From: a virus
Lineage: Duplodnaviria; Caudoviricetes
DNA length: 64,000 bases
IMG/VR virus record: IMGVR_UViG_3300032233_001964
Span: 6,498-70,497 of that record
Strand: one strand, 5' to 3'
The translations under genes were made by a program, and so were the position numbers. Below are positions 1 through 61,815 of this stretch, in pieces (position 1 is the first letter of the stretch; every line of letters begins with the position of its first letter). The notes beneath the pieces are model-generated. The model ran no database searches, was not told the DNA's origin, and saw only the letters and a list, made by a program, of their open reading frames with translations.

Positions 1-297
1 GGCACCGCCTGTCCCGCCCGACGGCGCGTTGCCGTTCATGGAGATGGTGCCGTAGTTGTTCACGCGCTTGGCGTAGATGATGTAGCCATCCATGATGAGG
101 CGCACGCCCGCGCGCACCGTGACCGTGTCGGCCACGATGTTCTGGTTGAGCGTGTAGACGTTCGCCACAGGGATGATCCCCAACACGGTCGCCGTACCGT
201 TGAAGTCGGGCGAGCCGTCAGACAGGTCCGACCCATACTGCGCGAACGCCGCCGTAGCAGAGGACGATGGCAGCGTAGGGTAGACCTGCGTGCTCAC
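1..297 (-). CDS. Virion structural/tail fibre-like protein, N-terminal part (runs off the window)
   Basis: Open frame from GTG at 297 (GTGA overlap with upstream stop): MSTQVYPTLPSS...GYIIYAKRVNNYGTISMNGNAPSGGTGGA, beta-rich and turning Gly-rich. Not in the ORF track. Confidence 0.6.
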   Translation of the reverse strand, partial: MSTQVYPTLPSSSATAAFAQYGSDLSDGSPDFNGTATVLGIIPVANVYTLNQNIVADTVTVRAGVRLIMDGYIIYAKRVNNYGTISMNGNAPSGGTGGA

Positions 298-27057: not shown

Positions 27058-27067
27058 ATGATAGCAT
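27058..27067. promoter_or_regulatory. Bidirectional extended -10 element ATGATAGCAT
   Basis: Reads TGA-TAGCAT on plus and TGC-TATCAT on minus, between divergent SD sites. Confidence 0.6.
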
Positions 27068-31754: not shown

Positions 31755-31767
31755 ACCAGGAGAAGTC

Positions 31768-32652
31768 ATGTTTGAAGCCGAGAACGAGAAGGAAACCGAA
31801 GCCCCCGAAGTCGTCACCGCGGAGGAGAGCATCGAGGAGATGCCCGAACCCGTCGAGGACGCCCCGTCGGTCTTCGACTGGAACGGGGAACTGGACGCGC
31901 TGACCAAGGCTGACTGGTTCAGCAAGATCGGCGACGATGGCCTCCGCAACACGCTCGTCCGCGGCTTCGAGTCGAAGTACAAGAACTTCGAGCGCGGCTT
32001 CACGAAGGCGTTCCAGGACACCGCGGCTCGCCGCAAGGAACTGGAGCGCCGTGAGGCCGCCATCCGCGAGAACGAGTTGCGCGTGCAGCGGTGGCTCTCC
32101 GGCAACGCCGACCCGATGGCCGAGAAGCAGGTCGAGATCGACAAGCTGAAGGCCGCTCACGACGCTGCCATTCAGACGCTGCGCGACGAGTACGCGCAGT
32201 CCGTGCAGAAGGCGCAGGAGGAGTGGACCGGCAAGTACGGTTCCGCCGAGCGCGAGCGCGATGAGCTGCGCCAGCGGTTGGAGCAGTTTGAGTACGAGGC
32301 CAAGGCCGCCGAAGAGCGTCAGGTCGAAGAGGCGGTCGACGAGGTCGAGGGCTGGCTGAAGAGCGAGGCGTCCGACGTCTACGAGAACGACGAGGCGTTC
32401 TACGCCTTCTGCGTGCTCGTGACGGGCGGCCTCGACCCGGAGGACGCCGTCGTCATGACGCGCGCCAAGTTCGGCCCGCCGCCGGCCCCGACGCCGGAGC
32501 CCGTGCCGGAGGCCATGAACCTGATGAACCTCGGCCCGCAGCGTGGCGCGGGCACGGTGCAGTCGGAGAGCCGGTCCTACAAGGACATCATGGACGCGAT
32601 GCGTCGTGCGGCACAGACCGACGAGTCCGCGTTCTACTCTCCGAAGCGTTGA
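31768..32652 (+). CDS. Capsid scaffolding protein
   Basis: Acidic N-terminus, long coiled coil, position after portal. Confidence 0.7.
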   Translation: MFEAENEKETEAPEVVTAEESIEEMPEPVEDAPSVFDWNGELDALTKADWFSKIGDDGLRNTLVRGFESKYKNFERGFTKAFQDTAARRKELERREAAIRENELRVQRWLSGNADPMAEKQVEIDKLKAAHDAAIQTLRDEYAQSVQKAQEEWTGKYGSAERERDELRQRLEQFEYEAKAAEERQVEEAVDEVEGWLKSEASDVYENDEAFYAFCVLVTGGLDPEDAVVMTRAKFGPPPAPTPEPVPEAMNLMNLGPQRGAGTVQSESRSYKDIMDAMRRAAQTDESAFYSPKR

Positions 32653-32682
32653 CAGGCCGGCCGGGTCGGATAGGGTGACTGT

Positions 32683-32765
32683 GCGGGCTTCAGCCCGTGG
32701 TCATTCTCCTGATCTGTCCTGAAGGCAGCCGCCGGGCGGGCAACCTCCCGGCGGTTTCTTCTTTT
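32683..32765 (+). ncRNA. Candidate small RNA (5' hairpin, CU-rich anti-SD seed, intrinsic terminator)
   Basis: TTGACA(32649)-N16-TAGGGT(32671); hairpin GCGGGC-TTCA-GCCCGT; seed TTCTCCTGA; stem 32728-32755 plus U-tract. Confidence 0.5.
32728..32765 (+). terminator. Intrinsic terminator
   Basis: GCCGCCGGG...CCCGGCGGT followed by TTCTTCTTTT, at a strand convergence. Confidence 0.75.
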
Positions 32766-32965
32766 CAGAACGGCGGAAAGCGCGACCGCAGGGATACCCA
32801 AAGTTGAACGCCGCGTTCCTCGCAGTACTCGCAGAAGGCGAGGTCGCGACGATGCAGCACCATGAGACGCCACCACACGGGCTCGTAGGGAACGACGACG
32901 CGCGCCTGGCGCGGTCCGGTTTCCAACCAGACGAGGAGCTCCTCGGTCGGATCGTCGGGGCTCAG
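32765..32965 (-). CDS. Possible small protein with CxxC (start uncertain)
   Basis: In-frame CTG overlapping the upstream stop; ...AFCEYCEERGVQLW. Confidence 0.4.
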   Translation of the reverse strand: MSPDDPTEELLVWLETGPRQARVVVPYEPVWWRLMVLHRRDLAFCEYCEERGVQLWVSLRSRFPPF

Positions 32966-38360: not shown

Positions 38361-38427
38361 CTTGACAGATCATACCACCACGATAAGGTACAAACACCGG
38401 CGCCGAACGCCGGCCAACGGAGGACAG

Positions 38428-38694
38428 ATGTTCAGCGTAGCAGTCAACAGCCCCAACCCGATCCGCGGCCTCACCGGATGCTTCAGCGTCCGCCCCGCCG
38501 GACGCACGGACGCGCTCGCCAACGCGCTCCGGCGCATCCACAGGGACACCGGGCTGGGAGCGCTCGCGCACCACTGCTACGGCTACACCCGGAGCCCGAA
38601 GGGTGGCGTCACTACCTACCACGAAGTCACGCTCGGTCGTGACGGCGTGCCCTCCGCGCGCGTCCGTATCGTGCTCGGCGGGGGTGTCGCGTGA
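38428..38694 (+). CDS. Early hypothetical protein
   Basis: TTGACA-N16-TAAGGT promoter (38362-38389), GGAGG SD. Confidence 0.7.
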   Translation: MFSVAVNSPNPIRGLTGCFSVRPAGRTDALANALRRIHRDTGLGALAHHCYGYTRSPKGGVTTYHEVTLGRDGVPSARVRIVLGGGVA

Positions 38695-38774
38695 ACCGCG
38701 CCGCCGCCGTCCTGATCCTCGCCGCCTACGGCATTGCGGCCGGCTGGGCCTTCCTCAACTGGGGGCTCGCATGA
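38691..38774 (+). CDS. 27-aa hydrophobic peptide
   Basis: Coupled at both ends: MNRAAAVLILAAYGIAAGWAFLNWGLA. Confidence 0.5.
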   Translation: MNRAAAVLILAAYGIAAGWAFLNWGLA

Positions 38775-39022
38775 TCGTCGACCCCGTAGCCCGACACGAG
38801 GCCGCCGCGCTCCGTGCCCGGCGCGAGCAGGACGAGCGCCGCGCCTACGGCAACTGGGCCGGTGTCCTGGCCGCGGTCGACCGCGAGCGGCGGCACCTCG
38901 AAGCCGCCGCCGCGTTCCTCGACGAGGCGGCCGAGGTCGCCACGGCTATCGGCGACCGCGCCGGAGCTCGATCCTACCGCGCCCGCGCTACCAGCCTCCG
39001 CAGCTGGGCGCACGTTCTCTAA
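38771..39022 (+). CDS. Early hypothetical protein
   Basis: ATGA coupling. Confidence 0.6.
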   Translation: MIVDPVARHEAAALRARREQDERRAYGNWAGVLAAVDRERRHLEAAAAFLDEAAEVATAIGDRAGARSYRARATSLRSWAHVL

Positions 39023-39046
39023 CCTCGACCCCCAGGAGTATCAGCC

Positions 39047-39322
39047 ATGAATACCGCTTCCACTCGCATGAACCGGGTAACCGTGCTCGCGGAGTACCTC
39101 GGCTGGGACCGCGCCGACGTGCCGGCCTACGAGTACAGGGCCGGACGCTTTGCCACGCGCGTCTACTCTATCGGACGCCGCTGCTACTGCGTGACCACGC
39201 GCGGACAGACGCCGCCGCAGGATGTCCGCGGGGACGGGCCGGCGCTCGACTGGCGGGCGTTGCCCGCCGATACGTGGCCGCTCCCGCGCTATCCGGGCAC
39301 CGTGCTGTGGGTGGCAGAATGA
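39047..39322 (+). CDS. Early hypothetical protein
   Basis: AGGAG SD. Confidence 0.65.
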   Translation: MNTASTRMNRVTVLAEYLGWDRADVPAYEYRAGRFATRVYSIGRRCYCVTTRGQTPPQDVRGDGPALDWRALPADTWPLPRYPGTVLWVAE

Positions 39323-39522
39323 CCGCGCGCCACGAAGAGCCGGCCGCGTCGGAGCCGCTGCGCGACGACCTGTGCGCCTGGTACGGGACGCCGCCCTGGA
39401 CCCGTCCGGTCCAGCCGGTCGACCGTCCGGCCACCGATCCGGCGGACACGAGCGCCGACGGCCAGGACTACGGCCAGGATGCCGGCCCGGATGCCGGCGC
39501 GGACAATCTTCTACCTTTCTGA
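39319..39522 (+). CDS. Early hypothetical protein
   Basis: ATGA coupling. Confidence 0.5.
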   Translation: MTARHEEPAASEPLRDDLCAWYGTPPWTRPVQPVDRPATDPADTSADGQDYGQDAGPDAGADNLLPF

Positions 39523-39532
39523 CGCATGCCCC

Positions 39533-39561
39533 TTGACTGTACCTTACCGCCGTACTATGAT
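39533..39561 (+). promoter_or_regulatory. Sigma70-type promoter with overlapping operator
   Basis: TTGACT-N17-TATGAT; operator 39543-39559. Confidence 0.8.
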
Positions 39562-39585
39562 CTATCCACACAACGGAGGCCCACA

Positions 39586-39909
39586 ATGAACTACGCAGGC
39601 GCACCGAACAGCCCCTACGCCGACATGCTCGGCGACCGGCCCGATCACCTCACGACCGACGACGTACTGCCGGCCCTGATCGAGGCGGACATCGCCGCAT
39701 GGCTCGACCAGGACGGCGACCTGCACGTCGAGGCGGCCGACGGCACGCGCATCGAGGTCGCCTGCTATCGGGACGACGAGCAGTGGATCCGGCGCCGCAG
39801 CGGCGCGTTCGTCGGTCAGCTGACCGAACGCAAGCCGGCCGCCTTCGTGACCGCCTTCGTCGCGCTCTGCAAGGCCGAAGGGATCGACCTGCTCGGCTCT
39901 GACGACTAA
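39586..39909 (+). CDS. Early acidic hypothetical protein
   Basis: GGAGG SD. Confidence 0.7.
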   Translation: MNYAGAPNSPYADMLGDRPDHLTTDDVLPALIEADIAAWLDQDGDLHVEAADGTRIEVACYRDDEQWIRRRSGAFVGQLTERKPAAFVTAFVALCKAEGIDLLGSDD

Positions 39910-39964
39910 CTACGCAGCCCCGGCCACACGGCCAGCCTACACGACAAACACGGAGACGTCAACC

Positions 39965-40186
39965 ATGAACACCGATCATACAACCCCGCCCGGCTTCATC
40001 GAGGTCACGACCTACAACACCAACGCGCAGTGGACGGTGCTGCTGCCCATCGCCGGCGTATTCGTCGTGGCCGAGCCGGGCTGCGCCGTCCGCCTCCGGC
40101 CCTTGACCGGCGGCACGGGCTGGGAGGTCCGCGAATCCTACGAGCAGGTACTCGCCAAGATCACCGCAGCCTGCGTGCGGCCATGA
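39965..40186 (+). CDS. Early hypothetical protein
   Basis: GGAG SD. Confidence 0.65.
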   Translation: MNTDHTTPPGFIEVTTYNTNAQWTVLLPIAGVFVVAEPGCAVRLRPLTGGTGWEVRESYEQVLAKITAACVRP

Positions 40187-40407
40187 GCGCGACCGACAGC
40201 CGCCCGCCCTGCCCCGACTGCGGCGCGCCTGCGTCCCGCTGCGCCTGGTACGGGCGCACCCGCCGCGTCTACTCGTGTGACCAGTGCGCCGCCCGCCGCC
40301 GCGATCCGGCCGTGGTCGAGGTCCGCACCTCGTCCGGCTGGCGCGGCTGGCGCAACGCACGCGGCCCGTGCGAGGACGCGCCCTGCTGCGGCTGCTGCAC
40401 ATACTGA
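40183..40407 (+). CDS. Cys-rich small protein (CEDAPCCGCC C-terminus)
   Basis: CPDC, CDQC and CEDAPCCGCC motifs. Confidence 0.7.
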   Translation: MSATDSRPPCPDCGAPASRCAWYGRTRRVYSCDQCAARRRDPAVVEVRTSSGWRGWRNARGPCEDAPCCGCCTY

Positions 40408-40434
40408 AGTCGGGCCGCGCAGGTGCCCCGCCCC

Positions 40435-40463
40435 TTGACGATACCTTACCGCCACGCTATCAT
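40435..40463 (+). promoter_or_regulatory. Sigma70-type promoter with overlapping operator
   Basis: TTGACG-N17-TATCAT; operator 40445-40461. Confidence 0.8.
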
Positions 40464-40489
40464 CTGTCTGCCACTCAGGAGAACCGACC

Positions 40490-40975
40490 ATGACTAACCT
40501 TACGGGCGCAATCGCGAAACGCTACGACAACCCTGCCGACCTGTTCCGTAGCCTCTACAAGTACACCGACTGCGGCGCGCAGGCGGGCATCCTCGTCGAG
40601 GAGACCATCCACGCCCCCACCTCGTCCGACCCGTGGGCCGAAGAGGGCGGCACCCGCTGGGTCTACGACGCGCGCGACCTGCCCGGATCGTGGGAGGACA
40701 TCCACGTCCTCGCCGTCAGCGTGTCGTCCATCGTGGAGGGGATCGACGCCATGACGGCGACGCACGTCGTGCGCGTTGAGGACGTGAGCGAGGAGAACTT
40801 CGACGCAGCGTGGGACGCAGCCGTCGCCGCCGTCGAGGAGGAAGCGGACGCCCTATGGAACGATACTCACGGCTGCCCGACCTGCGCGGCTCATCATGGC
40901 GTCGACCTCTCCGAGGAAGCCTCCCCCGTGTGGGATGAGTGTCCCGAATGCGGCGGACACGGCGACGCGATCTAA
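40490..40975 (+). CDS. Early acidic protein with C-terminal Zn finger
   Basis: AGGAGA SD; CPTC..CPEC. Confidence 0.7.
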   Translation: MTNLTGAIAKRYDNPADLFRSLYKYTDCGAQAGILVEETIHAPTSSDPWAEEGGTRWVYDARDLPGSWEDIHVLAVSVSSIVEGIDAMTATHVVRVEDVSEENFDAAWDAAVAAVEEEADALWNDTHGCPTCAAHHGVDLSEEASPVWDECPECGGHGDAI

Positions 40976-41004
40976 TCCTCACCGACCGACCAGGAGAACC
41001 GACC

Positions 41005-41235
41005 ATGACCCACGTCGAAGAATACGCCAACGCCATGTCTGAGCTGTACGAGTTTGAGTCCGCAGCCTACGAGGATCAGGCCCGCCGCTACCTGCTCGGC
41101 GAGCCCGCCGCTGCTGCCCGACACGCCTACAGCCTGCTCCTGAAGGCCGACGCCACCGACGACCGGTGCAGCGCCCGCCTCCTCCGCACGGCCGGCATGG
41201 CCCTCCTCGCGGCCGTCGTCGAGGGGGACGTATGA
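41005..41235 (+). CDS. Early hypothetical protein
   Basis: AGGAGA SD. Confidence 0.6.
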   Translation: MTHVEEYANAMSELYEFESAAYEDQARRYLLGEPAAAARHAYSLLLKADATDDRCSARLLRTAGMALLAAVVEGDV

Positions 41236-41513
41236 GCGCCGAAGACCGCGCGCGGCGCTCCGCGCACGACCTGTCCATCGCCCTCGTCGGCATCATCGCC
41301 GACGAGGCGGCCTCCGCCATCCGTATCGTCGAGGCGCAGGCCATCGCGCAGCGCGCCCTCGCCGTCGCAGGCCACGCCTACATCCGCGGCATGGTGCGAG
41401 GCCACGAGGAGGCGCTCGTCGAGTTGCGACGCATCCAGCGGCGCGTCACGATGGTGCAGGACGCGCTCCGCGAGGCGCGCATGGCCGCCGAGCGGATCGA
41501 GGCCGGACCGTGA
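41232..41513 (+). CDS. Early hypothetical protein
   Basis: ATGA coupling. Confidence 0.6.
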   Translation: MSAEDRARRSAHDLSIALVGIIADEAASAIRIVEAQAIAQRALAVAGHAYIRGMVRGHEEALVELRRIQRRVTMVQDALREARMAAERIEAGP

Positions 41514-41592
41514 TGTGCCTCCTGCTGATCGTCCCGCCGCTCGCACTCGTCGTGTGGGCGAGCGTCTGCCCCTACAACCCCCGGAGGGAACC

Positions 41593-42036
41593 GTGACCAC
41601 ACAAGACTACACCATCTCGCTGCGCGTGAAGCCTGGCGCACGCCGCGCCCAGCTGACCCTGAACACGCCCACCCGGCCGGGCCTCTGCGTCGTCCGGCCC
41701 GGCGTCGACGAGGCGCACGCCGTCGCCAACGCGCTGCGTGGCATGGCCGACATGATCGACGCGCGCCGCCGGCAGGCGCTCCGGGACGCCGGTGCCACCG
41801 ACTGGGTCCGGCTCAGCATCGACGTGGACGTCGAGGTCGAGGCCGGCCAGATCGAGGCGGCCCGCCGGGCCGAGGCGGGCGCGCAGTCCGGCGACATGGC
41901 CGCCGCGCAGGAGGTCATGAACCTCGCGCTCGAATGGCTGGCGACCGCCATGTACGACAAAGACTCCAGGGACTGGCAGTCCTTCGACTGGGCGCTCGTG
42001 GACGACTGCGACCCCGACGACTTCCCGGAGGCATGA
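41593..42036 (+). CDS. Early hypothetical protein
   Basis: GTG start (VTTQDYTISLRVK) after GGAGGG. Confidence 0.6.
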   Translation: MTTQDYTISLRVKPGARRAQLTLNTPTRPGLCVVRPGVDEAHAVANALRGMADMIDARRRQALRDAGATDWVRLSIDVDVEVEAGQIEAARRAEAGAQSGDMAAAQEVMNLALEWLATAMYDKDSRDWQSFDWALVDDCDPDDFPEA

Positions 42037-42230
42037 TGCCGGATCGCGTCATCATCATCGACTACACCAACTGGAAGGGAGAGCGGCGGCGCCGGACCAT
42101 CCTGCCCCGCGAGCTCTGGTACGGGACGACGAACTACCACACGACGCCGCAATGGTTCATCCGTGCGGTCGACCTTGAGAAGACGGCGGTGCGTGACTTC
42201 GCGCTCCGTGACATCCACTCCACCATCTGA
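42033..42230 (+). CDS. Stand-alone WYL-like domain protein
   Basis: IDYTNWKGERRRRTILP..WYG..QWFIRAVDLEK..RDFALRDI. Confidence 0.65.
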   Translation: MMPDRVIIIDYTNWKGERRRRTILPRELWYGTTNYHTTPQWFIRAVDLEKTAVRDFALRDIHSTI

Positions 42231-42237
42231 GGACACC

Positions 42238-42393
42238 ATGAACGACAACCAGCACCAGCAACTCATTGAGACGCTCATCGCGCAGACCACGGCGGTCCGG
42301 GAGATCCACGCCCTCATCGTCCGCATCATCCTGTGGAGCGCCGTCGCCGGCCTCGCGAGCGTCGTCTGGACGTTCGTCAACACGCCCGTCTGA
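42238..42393 (+). CDS. Small membrane protein
   Basis: C-terminal TM helix. Confidence 0.55.
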   Translation: MNDNQHQQLIETLIAQTTAVREIHALIVRIILWSAVAGLASVVWTFVNTPV

Positions 42394-46932: not shown

Positions 46933-47189
46933 GCATCACCTCCTCCCACGCAGTCAGGTCCATCATCGACGTGAGCCGGGACAGCGCAGCGCGGGCCGCG
47001 CGGATGCGGTCCTCGTGCGCCACCCGGAGCGTGGCCTCGATGTCACGCGCGATGCGCGACTCGAACTGGTTGGCCTCCTTGTTGCGAAGCCAGTCGATGT
47101 ACTCGGTGTTCGTCAGCGCATCGATGATGATCTGCTCGTGCGCCTCGACCTGCGACTCGAACGTCGCGTACTTCTCGTACCTGTCCATC
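46919..47189 (-). CDS. Hypothetical protein (MDRYEKYATF...; start approximate)
   Basis: Coupled ORF. Confidence 0.5.
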
Positions 47190-49056
47190 ACTGCACCTCG
47201 CTCGGCGGCGCCGCGATGCCGTTGGCGATGATGTTCGCTGCGCTCTCGCGGTTCAGCGCGCTGATCTGCCCGTTGGTGTAGCCGAGCGCCTTGAGCATGG
47301 CCCACATGCTGGGCGATGCCACGAAGACCTGCATGACCGGCTTCTCCGACAGGGGCGGCACGGTCACCTGGGGCACGCTGACAGGCGCGCTGGCCGTCAC
47401 GCCGACGACCTCCGGCACGACCGTCTCGACGACCTCCGGCGCGGCCTCCTCGACCTTGCCGAGCTCGATGACGGTCCAGCCCTTCGGCGTCTTCTTCGGC
47501 TTCGTCGGCGTGCCGATCACGACCTGCCCGTCGAACGACGACCACGAGGCGAGCACCTTGCTCAGGGTGTCCGCATCCCAGCCGCGGTCCTCCGGCATCA
47601 CCAGCACGGGCCGGTCGGAGGGGACGGTGCTGCTGATCGCCATCGCCAGGGCACACGTCACCGTGGCCCACTCCGCACCCGACAGGGCGGCGCGCAGCTT
47701 GCCGCCGGCGGCCAGGCCGAGGCGGAAGACCTCCTTGTCCCCGTCCACCAACTGGAGGCCGAACGTCCAGCCGTCCGGCATGAACGTCTGCACGCGCGCC
47801 ACGAACGCATCGGAGACGCGCTTGAGGAGGCCGGCGACGACACCCTCCAGTTCCTTCTTCATGCCCTTGTACGTCTCACTCTCGCGCGTCATCTCCGCGA
47901 CGGTGTCGCGTGCGCGCTTGAGGCTCGACCACTTGTCCGCCGTGGTGCGGAGCGCGAGGTAGCGGTCCTGTGCGGCGATGGCTTCCTTCTGCAACTCAGT
48001 CGCATCAAGGTCGAGCAACTCCTGCGGGAGCAGCGCCACGTCCTGCGCGAGCTCCGCGAGGCGGCGCTCCATCCCGGCGTAGTCCGGCGCCGGCTGCTGC
48101 GCCGGAAGGGAGTTCAGCGTGTCGGAGTAGAACGAGGCGCACGCCTTGATGTGCGCCTTGCCCACAGCGCTGGAGCAGAGGGGGCACGCCTCCACGCCCT
48201 GCGACACGGCGATGCCCGCCGCCGACGCCATGCTGCGGTAGAACTCGCGCTCGATCTCGGACGCCGGCGCGACGCGCGGGGCCGCGAGCTGCTGACGCAA
48301 CCCGGTGATCTTGGCGAGCAGCGCGGCATGCTGCGCCTGTGCGCTCTGCGTGCGGCTGAGACGGGCCGCCGTCTCGCCGGAGATGCGCTTCGCCTCCTCG
48401 ATGTCGGCCTCGGTCGGAGCCTCGTCGAGATCCTGCGTCATGCCGGTGAGCAGCGTCTCCGCCCCGCTCGCCTCCTTGGCGGCGTCACGCTGCCGCTTGC
48501 CCGCGTACTCCAGCGTGGCGAGGAGCGCCTCGACCGGGGACTTGCCACGGCCGACCGCCGCGCTGATGTCCTTGTACTTGGCCTGATAGATGGTCGGCAC
48601 CATCTCCTCGACGTCGGAGGCGCGCACGTCCGCAGCGGCCCACGAGAGGAACGCCTTGCGCGCCGTGGCCGGGGAGCCCTCCAGCACCTCGCGCACCGCG
48701 TGCAGCGGGAGGAACGCATCGCCCGCCGTGTCGTGCGAGGGGCGCCCGCCGTCCTTGGCGATGAAGACGTAGTCCTCGCCGCTGCTCAACTTGGCGTGGA
48801 TGGAGAGGCGCTCGGCACTCGCCATGCTCATCAGCAGCGCCGAGTCGCGCACACCGGAGCGCCCGACGAGGTCGTCGGCACTGCCGAGCAGCGCCAACTG
48901 AAGGCTCTGCTGGATGCTAGACTTGCCGCTTCCGTTCGGCCCGACGATCAGCGTCTTGGGTCCGAGCTCGACGGTCTTGGGGCGGCCGTCGGCGGTCTTG
49001 AGGTTGGAGACGAGGCGCTCGACGTGCGGGCGCTGGGTGGTGGTCTTCTTTGCCAT
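47188..49056 (-). CDS. Rad50/SbcC-like ABC ATPase
   Basis: GPNGSGKSS Walker A, CPLC Zn hook, LSGAE signature; promoter TTGACG-N17-TAAGGT at 49163-49135. Confidence 0.8.
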   Translation of the reverse strand: MAKKTTTQRPHVERLVSNLKTADGRPKTVELGPKTLIVGPNGSGKSSIQQSLQLALLGSADDLVGRSGVRDSALLMSMASAERLSIHAKLSSGEDYVFIAKDGGRPSHDTAGDAFLPLHAVREVLEGSPATARKAFLSWAAADVRASDVEEMVPTIYQAKYKDISAAVGRGKSPVEALLATLEYAGKRQRDAAKEASGAETLLTGMTQDLDEAPTEADIEEAKRISGETAARLSRTQSAQAQHAALLAKITGLRQQLAAPRVAPASEIEREFYRSMASAAGIAVSQGVEACPLCSSAVGKAHIKACASFYSDTLNSLPAQQPAPDYAGMERRLAELAQDVALLPQELLDLDATELQKEAIAAQDRYLALRTTADKWSSLKRARDTVAEMTRESETYKGMKKELEGVVAGLLKRVSDAFVARVQTFMPDGWTFGLQLVDGDKEVFRLGLAAGGKLRAALSGAEWATVTCALAMAISSTVPSDRPVLVMPEDRGWDADTLSKVLASWSSFDGQVVIGTPTKPKKTPKGWTVIELGKVEEAAPEVVETVVPEVVGVTASAPVSVPQVTVPPLSEKPVMQVFVASPSMWAMLKALGYTNGQISALNRESAANIIANGIAAPPSEVQ

Positions 49057-59802: not shown

Positions 59803-61727
59803 GCGTCGTCCTCCTCTTCTTCGATGAACAGCTTGGACACGACGTCGTCCACGATGGCCTCGCGGTCCTCCATGCCGAGGAGCTTCTCGCCCATGCCGTC
59901 CAGCTCGTCGGCCGCAAGGAACTGCTCGATGGGGCCGAACTTGTCGGTCAGGATCTCGACCACACGCTCGTCGTAGGTCGAGGCTGCGACGACGACCTTC
60001 AGCAGCGTGGCCCGCCCACCATGACGGTCGAACCGGCCACGCCACTGAAGGAAGTCACCGGGCTTCCAAGGAAGCATGGCGAAGATAGCGAGGTCCGCCG
60101 TCTGCATGCCATCGACCGCGATCCCGAACGCCTGGCCCGTGCCGACGAGGCAACACGGGCCAGGACTGTTTCGGAACCCGTCGATCATGTCGTTGCGCTC
60201 GGACTCGCTTACGCCGCCGTGCCCAACCCAGACCGTCGCGTTCTTCACCTCGTCGCTGGCGCTCGCGGCCTTTCGGATCGCTTCGCCCCAACGCTCGGCT
60301 TCCCGGCGACGAGCAGTGAACACGATGACCTTGCCGCCACCCTTCAGTCCTTCAAGGACTTCCGCCACGACATAGCCACGCTTTCGGCTGCTCGCCTCCG
60401 CAAGACGCGCCTCGATGAGACGTTCTTGCGCCGGCACATCCTCGTAATCTCCTCGCGCCTGACGCGCAAGTTGTTTGATTGCTTGGTCGAAGGTTTGTGC
60501 GTCGTCGTAGCGCTCGGCCTTGTCCTGCGCCGACACGGGCAGGTAGACCACCTGGACGCGCGTCGGCGGGAGGCTGGCGTGGCTCTCGGTGTACGGCACC
60601 TCGTGCGTGAAGAAGGAGCAGCGCGCCCGGAGCTCGTCGATGTTGCTGCTCCCCTTGTCGTCCATGCCGCCGTAGGGGTTGGCGACCGCATCGCAGTACC
60701 GCTGCGCGAAGGAGCGGTACGAGTGCGCGAAGCCGCCGGGAGTGAGCAGGTCGAGCTGCGACCACAGCCGACGCGGGCGTCCGTCGTCGAGCGGCGTGGC
60801 CGTGAGGCCCACGCGGAGTTGTAGCGTCACGATGCGGCTGATGTCCATGATGGCGACGGCCCATGCGTCCTTGTCGCCGCCTGCCGTCTGCCGCCGGTGG
60901 AAGTCCACCGTGCCGTCCGACTTGCTCACCGCCTTCCACCGCTTCGACTGTCCGTGGATGTGCAGCTCGTCGAGGATGAGGACCGTCGGCTGGAGGCGCG
61001 TGACGAAGTCGAGGTTGTCGTTGAGCGACTCGGCCCCGACCACGACGAAGCGGCGCTGTCCGGTCTTGGCGCAGTGCTCGGTGTACTGCGGCCACGTCAT
61101 GTCGCTCTTGCGGCGTTCGCTCTCCGGCAGGAGCCGCCACGGCAGGATGTTCGTGTACTGCTGGACCTGCGTCCACCAGACGTGGCGCGCCTTCGCCGGG
61201 CAGATCACGAGGACCGTGCCCTGCCGCGTCAGCGCGTCGATGAGGGCGCCCACGGTCTTGCCTGCGCCGCACGGCCACACGTTCATCGTCCACGGCCGGG
61301 AGGCAGCCCACGCCGCGCTGCGCCGCTGATAGGGTGTCGCCATCTGCACGACGCGCGGCTTCAACTCACCGGACGACGCCTCGCGCACGAGGATCGTCTC
61401 GCCCTGCTGCTCCAGCGCATCGAGGCCCGCCTTGTCGGTCGGCCACGGCACGATGCCCTGCGCCTTGCGCGACTCGACGCTCCACTGCCCGCCGAGTTCC
61501 CACCCGGCGAGGAAGTGCTCCACGATGAACGCGGCGTGGACAGGGGAGTAGACGTCGATGTGCGACGGTGCGCCGTCGTCCGGCCACTCGTTCTTCGTGA
61601 GACGGTATTTGCGACGGCCGCGCACGGCCCACGCCAGGATGCCGGGGATGTTCTGCTCCAACGCGATGGCGTGCTGCGCGAGCATGGGATCATGGAGGCG
61701 GTAGAGGTAGTGGGGCTGGTCCCACAT
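59799..61727 (-). CDS. SF2 (SNF2-like) helicase
   Basis: GAGKT, ILDELH, GLTATP, GIAVDG..QWRGRFDRHG. Confidence 0.85.
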   Translation of the reverse strand: MWDQPHYLYRLHDPMLAQHAIALEQNIPGILAWAVRGRRKYRLTKNEWPDDGAPSHIDVYSPVHAAFIVEHFLAGWELGGQWSVESRKAQGIVPWPTDKAGLDALEQQGETILVREASSGELKPRVVQMATPYQRRSAAWAASRPWTMNVWPCGAGKTVGALIDALTRQGTVLVICPAKARHVWWTQVQQYTNILPWRLLPESERRKSDMTWPQYTEHCAKTGQRRFVVVGAESLNDNLDFVTRLQPTVLILDELHIHGQSKRWKAVSKSDGTVDFHRRQTAGGDKDAWAVAIMDISRIVTLQLRVGLTATPLDDGRPRRLWSQLDLLTPGGFAHSYRSFAQRYCDAVANPYGGMDDKGSSNIDELRARCSFFTHEVPYTESHASLPPTRVQVVYLPVSAQDKAERYDDAQTFDQAIKQLARQARGDYEDVPAQERLIEARLAEASSRKRGYVVAEVLEGLKGGGKVIVFTARRREAERWGEAIRKAASASDEVKNATVWVGHGGVSESERNDMIDGFRNSPGPCCLVGTGQAFGIAVDGMQTADLAIFAMLPWKPGDFLQWRGRFDRHGGRATLLKVVVAASTYDERVVEILTDKFGPIEQFLAADELDGMGEKLLGMEDREAIVDDVVSKLFIEEEEDDA

Positions 61728-61751
61728 GGCGGTTCTCCTGAAGGCCCGACG

Positions 61752-61815
61752 AGCGTAGCGGGTCTATGCCACGGTGTCAAGGGTTCTTGACGCAGCGGTA
61801 GAGGGGTGGTACAAG
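61752..61815. promoter_or_regulatory. Back-to-back promoters, each overlapped by a 17-bp operator
   Basis: Minus TTGACA-N17-TACGCT; plus TTGACG-N17-TACAAG; operators 61765-61781 and 61786-61802. Confidence 0.75.

Follow-up and report, generated by a model that had tools for sequence, protein, structure and literature searches.

What occupies the space where two operons of an uncultured phage run toward each other? The window, by which we mean the whole 64,000-nt stretch of DNA analyzed, comprises bases 6498-70497 of a single-contig virus record of 70,497 bp and 66% GC. GC3-based gene calling together with PHROGs places in it a plus-strand operon running from terL (27087) through portal (28727) and small genes to a scaffold-like gene, and a minus-strand cassette, extending from 34347 down to 32765, converges on this operon. 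The 112-nt gap between them (32653-32764) houses what is, as read from its letters, a free-standing promoter-hairpin-seed-terminator unit, with a predicted RNA of ~84 nt (32683 to ~32765). A previous examination (the sequence-only reading) had proposed that a promoter overlapping the scaffold stop codon gives an RNA of ~83 nt composed of a hairpin, a seed, and a terminator, and both the overlap and the predicted unit are present in the sequence. The features are as follows, where TIR denotes a translation initiation region:

31768-32652, plus strand: scaffold-like gene (294 aa, acidic coiled-coil), the last gene of the terL-portal operon
32649-32654, plus strand: -35 hexamer TTGACA; the TGA stop (32650-32652) of the scaffold-like gene falls within it
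32655-32682, plus strand: promoter spacer with -10 and discriminator; complementary to the linker when G-U pairs are counted
32671-32676, plus strand: -10 hexamer TAGGGT, after a 16-nt spacer from the -35
32683, plus strand: predicted +1, a G at position +7 after the -10
32683-32698, plus strand: 5′ hairpin GCGGGC-UUCA-GCCCGU, from fold prediction
32699-32726, plus strand: linker/seed GGUCAUUCUCCUGAUCUGUCCUGAAGGC, ~27 nt, with four blocks complementary to early TIRs
32728-32754, plus strand: intrinsic terminator GCCGCCGGGCGG-GCAA-CCUCCCGGCGG, with an 11-12 bp GC stem and a GCAA tetraloop
32755-32765, plus strand: U-tract of the terminator
32765-32960, minus strand: small converging ORF ending in SRFPPF and a stop codon, the stop lying inside the plus-strand U-tract

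The 294-aa protein is scaffold-like by composition only, and searches of Pfam and PHROGs assigned no function to the flanking or predicted target genes other than terL, portal, and helicase. The cultured-phage collection has no DNA or protein match to the locus, the scaffold-like protein, or the portal, and the phage family is an uncultured, high-GC, freshwater one. A search for tRNA and tmRNA genes returned none. Across the whole window no Rfam family, c4, 6C, and RsaE included, reaches its gathering score, and the segment 32500-32900 yields only sub-threshold terminator-like matches. An 85-nt form of the RNA is predicted to fold at -44.3 kcal/mol (z = -5.0), leaving the seed with a mean unpaired probability of 0.56, and a weak GGUCA/UGAUC stem may place UUCUCC in a loop.

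We considered and rejected coding readings of the gap. The minus-strand AGGAGA-ATG opens just a 4-codon ORF, the plus-strand GTG frame continues through the terminator, and the short ATG frames found at the start of the RNA in relatives have no common peptide. An 80-aa minus-strand ORF at 32634-32876 is without the coding GC3 phase expected of a gene. The small converging ORF at 32765-32960 (minus strand) does have a coding-type GC3 phase but is without an ATG or GTG start, the candidate starts being TTG, or a CTG overlapping the upstream stop codon; its 3′ end is kept in the nearest relatives and is missing in L004.

The predicted promoter of the unit is of the sigma70 type. The built-in promoter scanner does not list the site at 32649-32676, since TAGGGT matches only 3/6 positions of TATAAT, and both this -10 and the 16-nt spacer are sub-optimal. 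The class to which it belongs, TTGACN-16..18-TAnnnT, nonetheless occurs seven times genome-wide compared with 0.57 expected, a ~12-fold excess. Its members are the site studied here, five sites upstream of the first genes of non-structural operons (genes 38428, 39586, 40490, helicase, and 47188-49056), and one antisense site at 39962. Three of the early promoters recur below:

61752-61780, minus strand: TTGACA-17-TACGCT, helicase operon
40435-40463, plus strand: TTGACG-17-TATCAT, gene 40490
38362, plus strand: TTGACA-16-TAAGGT, gene 38428

The antisense member, TTGACG-17-TAGGCT at 39925-39962 (minus strand), points leftward from inside the TIR of gene 39965 and is followed by a GGCCGUGUGGCC hairpin. 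Its transcript would run antisense into gene 39586-39909, and the arrangement may be a cis-antisense RNA or a product of chance.

A second promoter class, TGnTAnnnT, is an extended -10 without a -35 and drives the packaging, virion, and lysis-side operons. Sites of this class at 27059, 34372/34379, 56982, 17438, 12377, and 2034/2011 lie 15-51 nt upstream of terL, the lysis-side genes, a giant 3286-aa gene, and other virion operons, and 9/21 genome-wide matches precede a called start; earlier notes on 27058 and 34371 agree with an extended -10 class at structural and lysis-side operons. The sequence-only reading had taken the small RNA to be late. This part of the proposal is not supported because TTGACA-16-TAGGGT falls in the same -35-containing class as the promoters of the predicted targets (38362, 40435, 61780), whereas the structural operons use TGnTAnnnT. 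With a promoter class common to both, the RNA would most likely be made together with its targets, and any shut-off would then come from build-up of a stable RNA and not from late transcription.

In search of the same unit elsewhere, we retrieved ~100 related loci by means of the scaffold-like protein. Among these, a high-GC freshwater clade (66-100% protein identity, 19 distinct lineages) is monophyletic with support of 98/97, and in ~16/19 of its lineages the best -35/-10 pair right after the scaffold stop scores at least 9 of 12, a score reached by ~1% of random 120-nt windows of the same genomes. The element takes the form TTGACA-17-TAnnnT just 3′ of the scaffold-like gene; the -10 of the relatives, at the same spacing, is TACAAT, TACACT, TAAGGT, or TACGAT, and L016 and L019 have a perfect TTGACA-17-TACAAT. 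Where the scaffold-like gene ends in TGA, the -35 overlaps the stop as cgTTGACA, and the wobble T of the Arg codon CGT is kept despite a genome with ~88% GC3. Where the stop is TAA or TAG, TTGAC is displaced 5-15 nt downstream, and in L002 and L003 it lies inside the coding region. At the family level, these comparisons indicate that the predicted promoter is real.

The segments downstream of the promoter are also retained. Every lineage examined has a purine at +7 after the -10 with a hairpin beginning there, then a linker of 20-35 nt and a 12-14 bp GC stem, in which some paired changes are seen across relatives. A GNRA tetraloop (GCAA, GCGA, GUGA, or GAAA) and a U-tract complete the terminator in all RNA-bearing relatives, and the predicted RNAs range from 76 to 126 nt. 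Within the linker, two well-supported subclades retain a GUUCUCC core between drifting flanks; several other subclades (L013, L016, L019, and L021) have G-rich linkers without an anti-Shine-Dalgarno (anti-SD) motif, so pairing of this kind is not family-wide. In the more distant marine relatives, which are low in GC, the spot is occupied simply by a plain terminator or by a downstream gene. Because a MAFFT/RNAalifold alignment of clade A placed the L003 seed wrong by 4 nt, we left alignment-based covariation in the linker unused. The proposal of a discrete unit is borne out by this conservation of promoter, +1 hairpin, and terminator, and we consider it quite probable that the gap holds a conserved phage small-RNA gene.

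Two further arrangements were seen among the related loci. In L014, L015, and L095 (for example L014:1650-1790), what follows the post-scaffold promoter is a hairpin lacking a U-tract, and beyond it a plus-strand CxxCxxCC gene (zinc/iron-chelating-like), and in the distant L032 and L040 the CxxCxxCC gene lies directly 3′ of the scaffold gene. As the promoter in L014/L015 drives that gene, and given the arrangement in L032/L040, the RNA unit may descend from its leader. At L103:3377-3412 and in L029, the promoter spacer and the -10/discriminator form a perfect inverted repeat (CACGGGGGUG ... CACUCCCGUG), which might serve as an operator or fold in read-through RNA.

What the RNA might do is suggested by the places in the window to which its linker is complementary:

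61733-61745, minus strand: helicase leader and SD GCCUUCAGGAGAA, with the ATG at 61727; predicted target, pairing with UCCUGAAGGC or UUCUCCUGA
40475-40483, plus strand: SD region UCAGGAGAA of gene 40490-40975; predicted target
40991-40998, plus strand: CAGGAGAA at the SD of gene 41005-41235; predicted target, 8 nt
38421-38429, plus strand: AGGACAGAU over the SD and AUG of gene 38428-38694; predicted target
39316-39324, plus strand: AGAAUGACC over the start codon of gene 39319-39522; predicted target, 9-mer
31757-31764, plus strand: CAGGAGAA at the SD of the scaffold-like gene, a late-operon gene; 8-nt match

The 9-mer TCAGGAGAA, said to lie in the ribosome-binding sites (RBSs) of gene 40490 and the helicase, is found at both (40475-40483, plus strand, and 61733-61741, minus strand), and it has three copies compared with 0.24 expected. 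So too with the 9-mer opposite the adjacent part of the seed, AGGACAGAT (38421-38429, plus strand), which ends in the ATG of gene 38428, and with the 8-nt matches at the RBSs of gene 41005 (40991) and the scaffold (31757). Two matches had gone unreported, a 10-mer GCCUUCAGGA in the helicase leader (61736-61745) and the 9-mer over the start of gene 39319. Several of these targets belong to a run of ~13 small ORFan genes in the rightward early region of the window (38428-42393), none of which has a Pfam or PHROG family; a Cys-rich frame at ~40186-40400 was missed by the gene finder used. Runs of small early ORFan genes are typical of host-takeover genes.

Genome-wide, the linker has 16 matches of at least 9 nt, ~1.5 times a rough uniform-composition chance estimate of ~11. 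Five of these are in TIRs, two of them at the helicase and one each at 38428, 39319, and 40490, four genes that all lie in the early region; the other 65 called TIRs have none, though GGAG is present in more than half of all called TIRs. The location of the matches, unlike their genome-wide total, is thus non-chance. Three of the four early-region genes are the first gene behind a -35-type promoter. When linkers were shuffled with CUCC held fixed, the probability of obtaining at least three early TIRs with at least 8 nt was 0.0007, and full-length cofolding against 79 TIRs, with intramolecular structure included, ranked 41005 first, helicase third, scaffold fourth, and 40490 fifth. The core-fixed shuffles, the confinement to early TIRs, and the cofolding all show complementarity exceeding the AGGAG core. 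Since early TIRs within a genome are paralogous cassettes, these matches cannot be counted as independent of one another.

These results bear on a simple alternative, that the segment is merely the 3′ UTR and terminator of the terL-scaffold operon and that the hexamers and SD complementarity arose by chance, any CU-rich stretch being able to match AGGAG. A hairpin and U-tract directly 3′ of the last gene, a seed that is buried in a G-U-rich hairpin when the RNA is folded from the stop codon, a promoter that the generic scanner passes over, and a plain terminator at the same spot in the distant marine relatives are what it would lead one to find. It is harder to reconcile with a promoter that is kept in 16/19 lineages and relocates with the type of stop codon, with the over-representation of that promoter's class, or with complementarity that survives core-fixed shuffles and is confined to early TIRs. 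A plain terminator would have nothing else conserved around it, whereas the promoter, the +1 hairpin, and the seed core are conserved here as well. We regard this explanation as highly unlikely.

The same motif could instead act as DNA, with a phage regulator binding GGAGAAC-type sites downstream of early promoters and the RNA locus carrying them inverted. In the promoters of the helicase, gene 40490, and the RNA, the motif does follow the -10 by 10-30 nt, and in clade A an inverted repeat flanks the first hairpin. However, the early promoters have no motif common to all of them (39533 and 49163 are without it), the motif tracks the start codon at SD spacing, and its orientation is always antisense in the lineages that bear it. 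G-U pairs, moreover, are tolerated in the extended hairpin and in the relative genome G005, which argues for RNA over a DNA operator, and we find the operator hard to credit.

The relative G001 (70,206 bp; 84% scaffold identity to the window) has the seed with different flanks, GUCGUUCUCCAU. Its linker matches two sites best genome-wide: 13 nt are perfectly matched at the extreme 5′ end of the gene that follows the ortholog of the promoter at window 40435, and 11 nt match the G001 helicase TIR, these sites ranking first and third of 81 by cofolding. The helicase TIR is thus within the cofold top three in both the window and G001. Next to the GGAG/CUCC pairing, both partners carry other bases in G001 (AU with AU) than in the window (UCA with UGA). 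At G001 47835-47885 (L113), the orthologous promoter is followed after 6 nt by AUGGAGAACGACAUG, and the message may be leaderless, or its second AUG may be used with GGAG as the SD; BLAST detects no counterpart in the window for the gene behind this promoter.

Among the other relatives, G002 has a 9-mer at a sigma70-driven TIR, and in G003, which is without CUCC, CUUGGUCG faces CGACCAAG, adjacent to the SD of a gene driven by sigma70. With six genomes combined, early-TIR complementarity beats that of shuffled linkers (P < 1/2000); genome by genome, the tests are marginal for G002 and G003 and not significant for G004 and G005. RNAduplex energies were noisy, permitted large loops, and yielded only marginal P values for single genomes. 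GGAGAAC is present in 5, 2, 1, and 2 called TIRs of the seed-bearing genomes versus 0 and 1 in the others, counts too small to test. Matches are about as good with non-cognate as with cognate seeds (that of G002, for example, has a 10-mer on window TIRs), and because of this, and because the early TIRs are paralogous, what we have is evidence for a conserved seed-target pair and not clean covariation. In sequence terms, the pair would be GUUCUCC with GGAGAAC, together with lineage-specific extensions.

A real, conserved transcription unit could nonetheless have another job, acting on host mRNAs, binding a protein through its GNRA-capped hairpin, or persisting as the relic of the leader or attenuator of a downstream gene since lost, with its anti-SD match incidental. 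The linkers are wholly different between subclades, with G-rich ones in several, while promoter and terminator stay constant; L014/L015 have the same promoter and a hairpin without a U-tract ahead of the CxxCxxCC gene, which L032 and L040 carry after the scaffold; and the target tests are weak in G004 and G005. Yet in both the window and G001 the 9-13 nt matches on early TIRs extend beyond the SD core, with the helicase TIR ranked in the top three, and GUUCUCC is kept while its flanks drift. We think such another role rather unlikely.

The position of the unit allows a further reading, in which it works in cis where the operons converge, as an insulator or antisense partner that handles read-through or colliding polymerases or triggers 3′-end cleavage. 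The genes do converge there, with the minus-strand ORF ending inside the plus-strand U-tract, and minus-strand (lysis-side) read-through transcripts would be perfectly complementary to the RNA. The hairpin has a U-tract on the plus strand only and no U-run after it on the minus strand. In relatives the unit is always at this junction, and L004 has a separate minus-strand terminator. A cis role, which seems to us improbable, would leave unexplained the linker matches to distant early TIRs, including those of the G001 linker to G001's own, and the promoter is of the class used by early genes. None of the rivals accounts at once for the conserved promoter and for the matches to early TIRs in two genomes whose seeds differ.

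The reading we prefer is that the RNA is an anti-TIR regulator that damps translation of early genes, to which we give a probability of roughly 0.5. Host RNA polymerase with its housekeeping sigma would initiate at TTGACA-16-TAGGGT and end at the strong GNRA-capped terminator. The RNA should be stable because hairpins close both of its ends, and ~27 nt would be left open, presenting the family-conserved core GUUCUCC (complementary to GGAGAAC) and its lineage-specific flanks. This seed would pair with the SD and start-codon regions of early messages, those of the first gene of the helicase/replication operon and of several small ORFan genes at 38.4-41.2 kb, blocking 30S binding and so limiting or ending early translation. 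Since its promoter is of the same class as those of its targets, the RNA would more likely serve as a built-in brake than as a late switch, strengthening as this stable molecule builds up next to early mRNAs that are short-lived. To make an RNA from the promoter class of its own targets is an unusual design for shut-off, which counts against the anti-TIR reading. The shut-off of early translation proposed earlier thus stands in part, with complementarity to early and replication TIRs that goes beyond chance, whereas late timing, given an early-class promoter, is not supported. The sequence shows the anatomy of the unit, its conservation, and a complementarity that is not random; from these we infer the transcript, its pairing in vivo, the direction of its effect, and its timing.

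The same linker would also be present in any terL-scaffold mRNA that reads through the gap. Folding that starts at the scaffold stop places the seed within a long G-U-rich hairpin together with promoter-region RNA (-64.6 kcal/mol), and the mean unpaired probability of the seed is 0.23 versus 0.56 in the short RNA. This drop in accessibility is partly expected from length, so we re-tested it with shuffled upstream segments. Complementarity to the RNA is greater for the 35 nt preceding +1 than for shuffled versions of them, with z = -2.4 in the window and -1.4 to -4.3 in clade A, an excess found in clade A and L103 only. With the seed paired to promoter-region RNA in the long form, a late read-through mRNA would carry a masked copy: there the RNA sequence would be a 3′ UTR, and only the promoter-initiated RNA would expose its seed. 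Such masking is a suggestion from fold models. More tentatively, we can envisage a family-wide RNA timer, in which a stable small RNA of early class, its seed co-evolving with early leaders that include that of the replication-helicase operon, progressively shuts down early translation and is silent in read-through mRNA; we hold this to be possible, with the balance somewhat against it.

Proteins are the usual explanation for temporal control in phages (sigma appropriators, anti-terminators, and phage polymerases, for example), and the known phage antisense RNAs (c4, sar, and OOP) govern single lysogeny or immunity genes. A conserved, self-contained RNA acting on the RBSs of several early operons would, if real, add a post-transcriptional layer to the lytic programme of an uncultured phage group, and in the form of a timer it would give an RNA-only transition from early to late in a phage relying on host RNA polymerase. 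Should the design recur in unrelated phages, it would amount to a strategy that is general and has largely been overlooked. It would also make it simple to predict early regulons with nothing but sequence in hand.

In its proposed action the RNA is likest to c4 of P1/P7 and to bacterial small RNAs with anti-SD seeds, and it lies outside all curated families. RsaE/RoxS of Firmicutes and 6C of Actinobacteria are small RNAs with CU- or C-rich anti-Shine-Dalgarno seeds. They resemble the RNA predicted here in that a pyrimidine-rich seed (UUCUCCU), unpaired in the bacterial RNAs and perhaps so in the window RNA, is directed at the SDs of several mRNAs, and in being stand-alone genes with an intrinsic terminator. 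They differ in being chromosomal and in carrying the seed in C-rich hairpin loops, often repeated, whereas the window RNA is phage-borne, has a single linker seed with lineage-specific flanks, and has phage early genes as its predicted targets.

The c4 antisense RNA of phages P1 and P7 is ~77 nt in length (reviewed in PMC12197685). Like the RNA proposed here, c4 is a small phage-encoded RNA that acts in trans on an mRNA of its own phage, where short exposed segments pair about an RBS and thereby block translation, and the short complementary blocks (~8-13 nt here) are held between stable helices. The two have no homology of sequence or structure, and c4 controls one operon (icd-ant) in the immunity of temperate phages and is processed from that same operon; the window RNA has its own predicted promoter and terminator, several scattered sites are its predicted targets (ORFan early genes and the helicase operon), and its pairing would centre on the SD. 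P22 sar and lambda OOP are likewise short phage antisense RNAs, of ~70-80 nt (PMC12197685), with their own promoter and terminator, and they regulate phage genes by pairing, as is predicted for the window RNA. They are encoded in cis, opposite their targets and with full complementarity to them, whereas the predicted targets of the window RNA lie 6-29 kb away and have only 8-10 nt in common with it.
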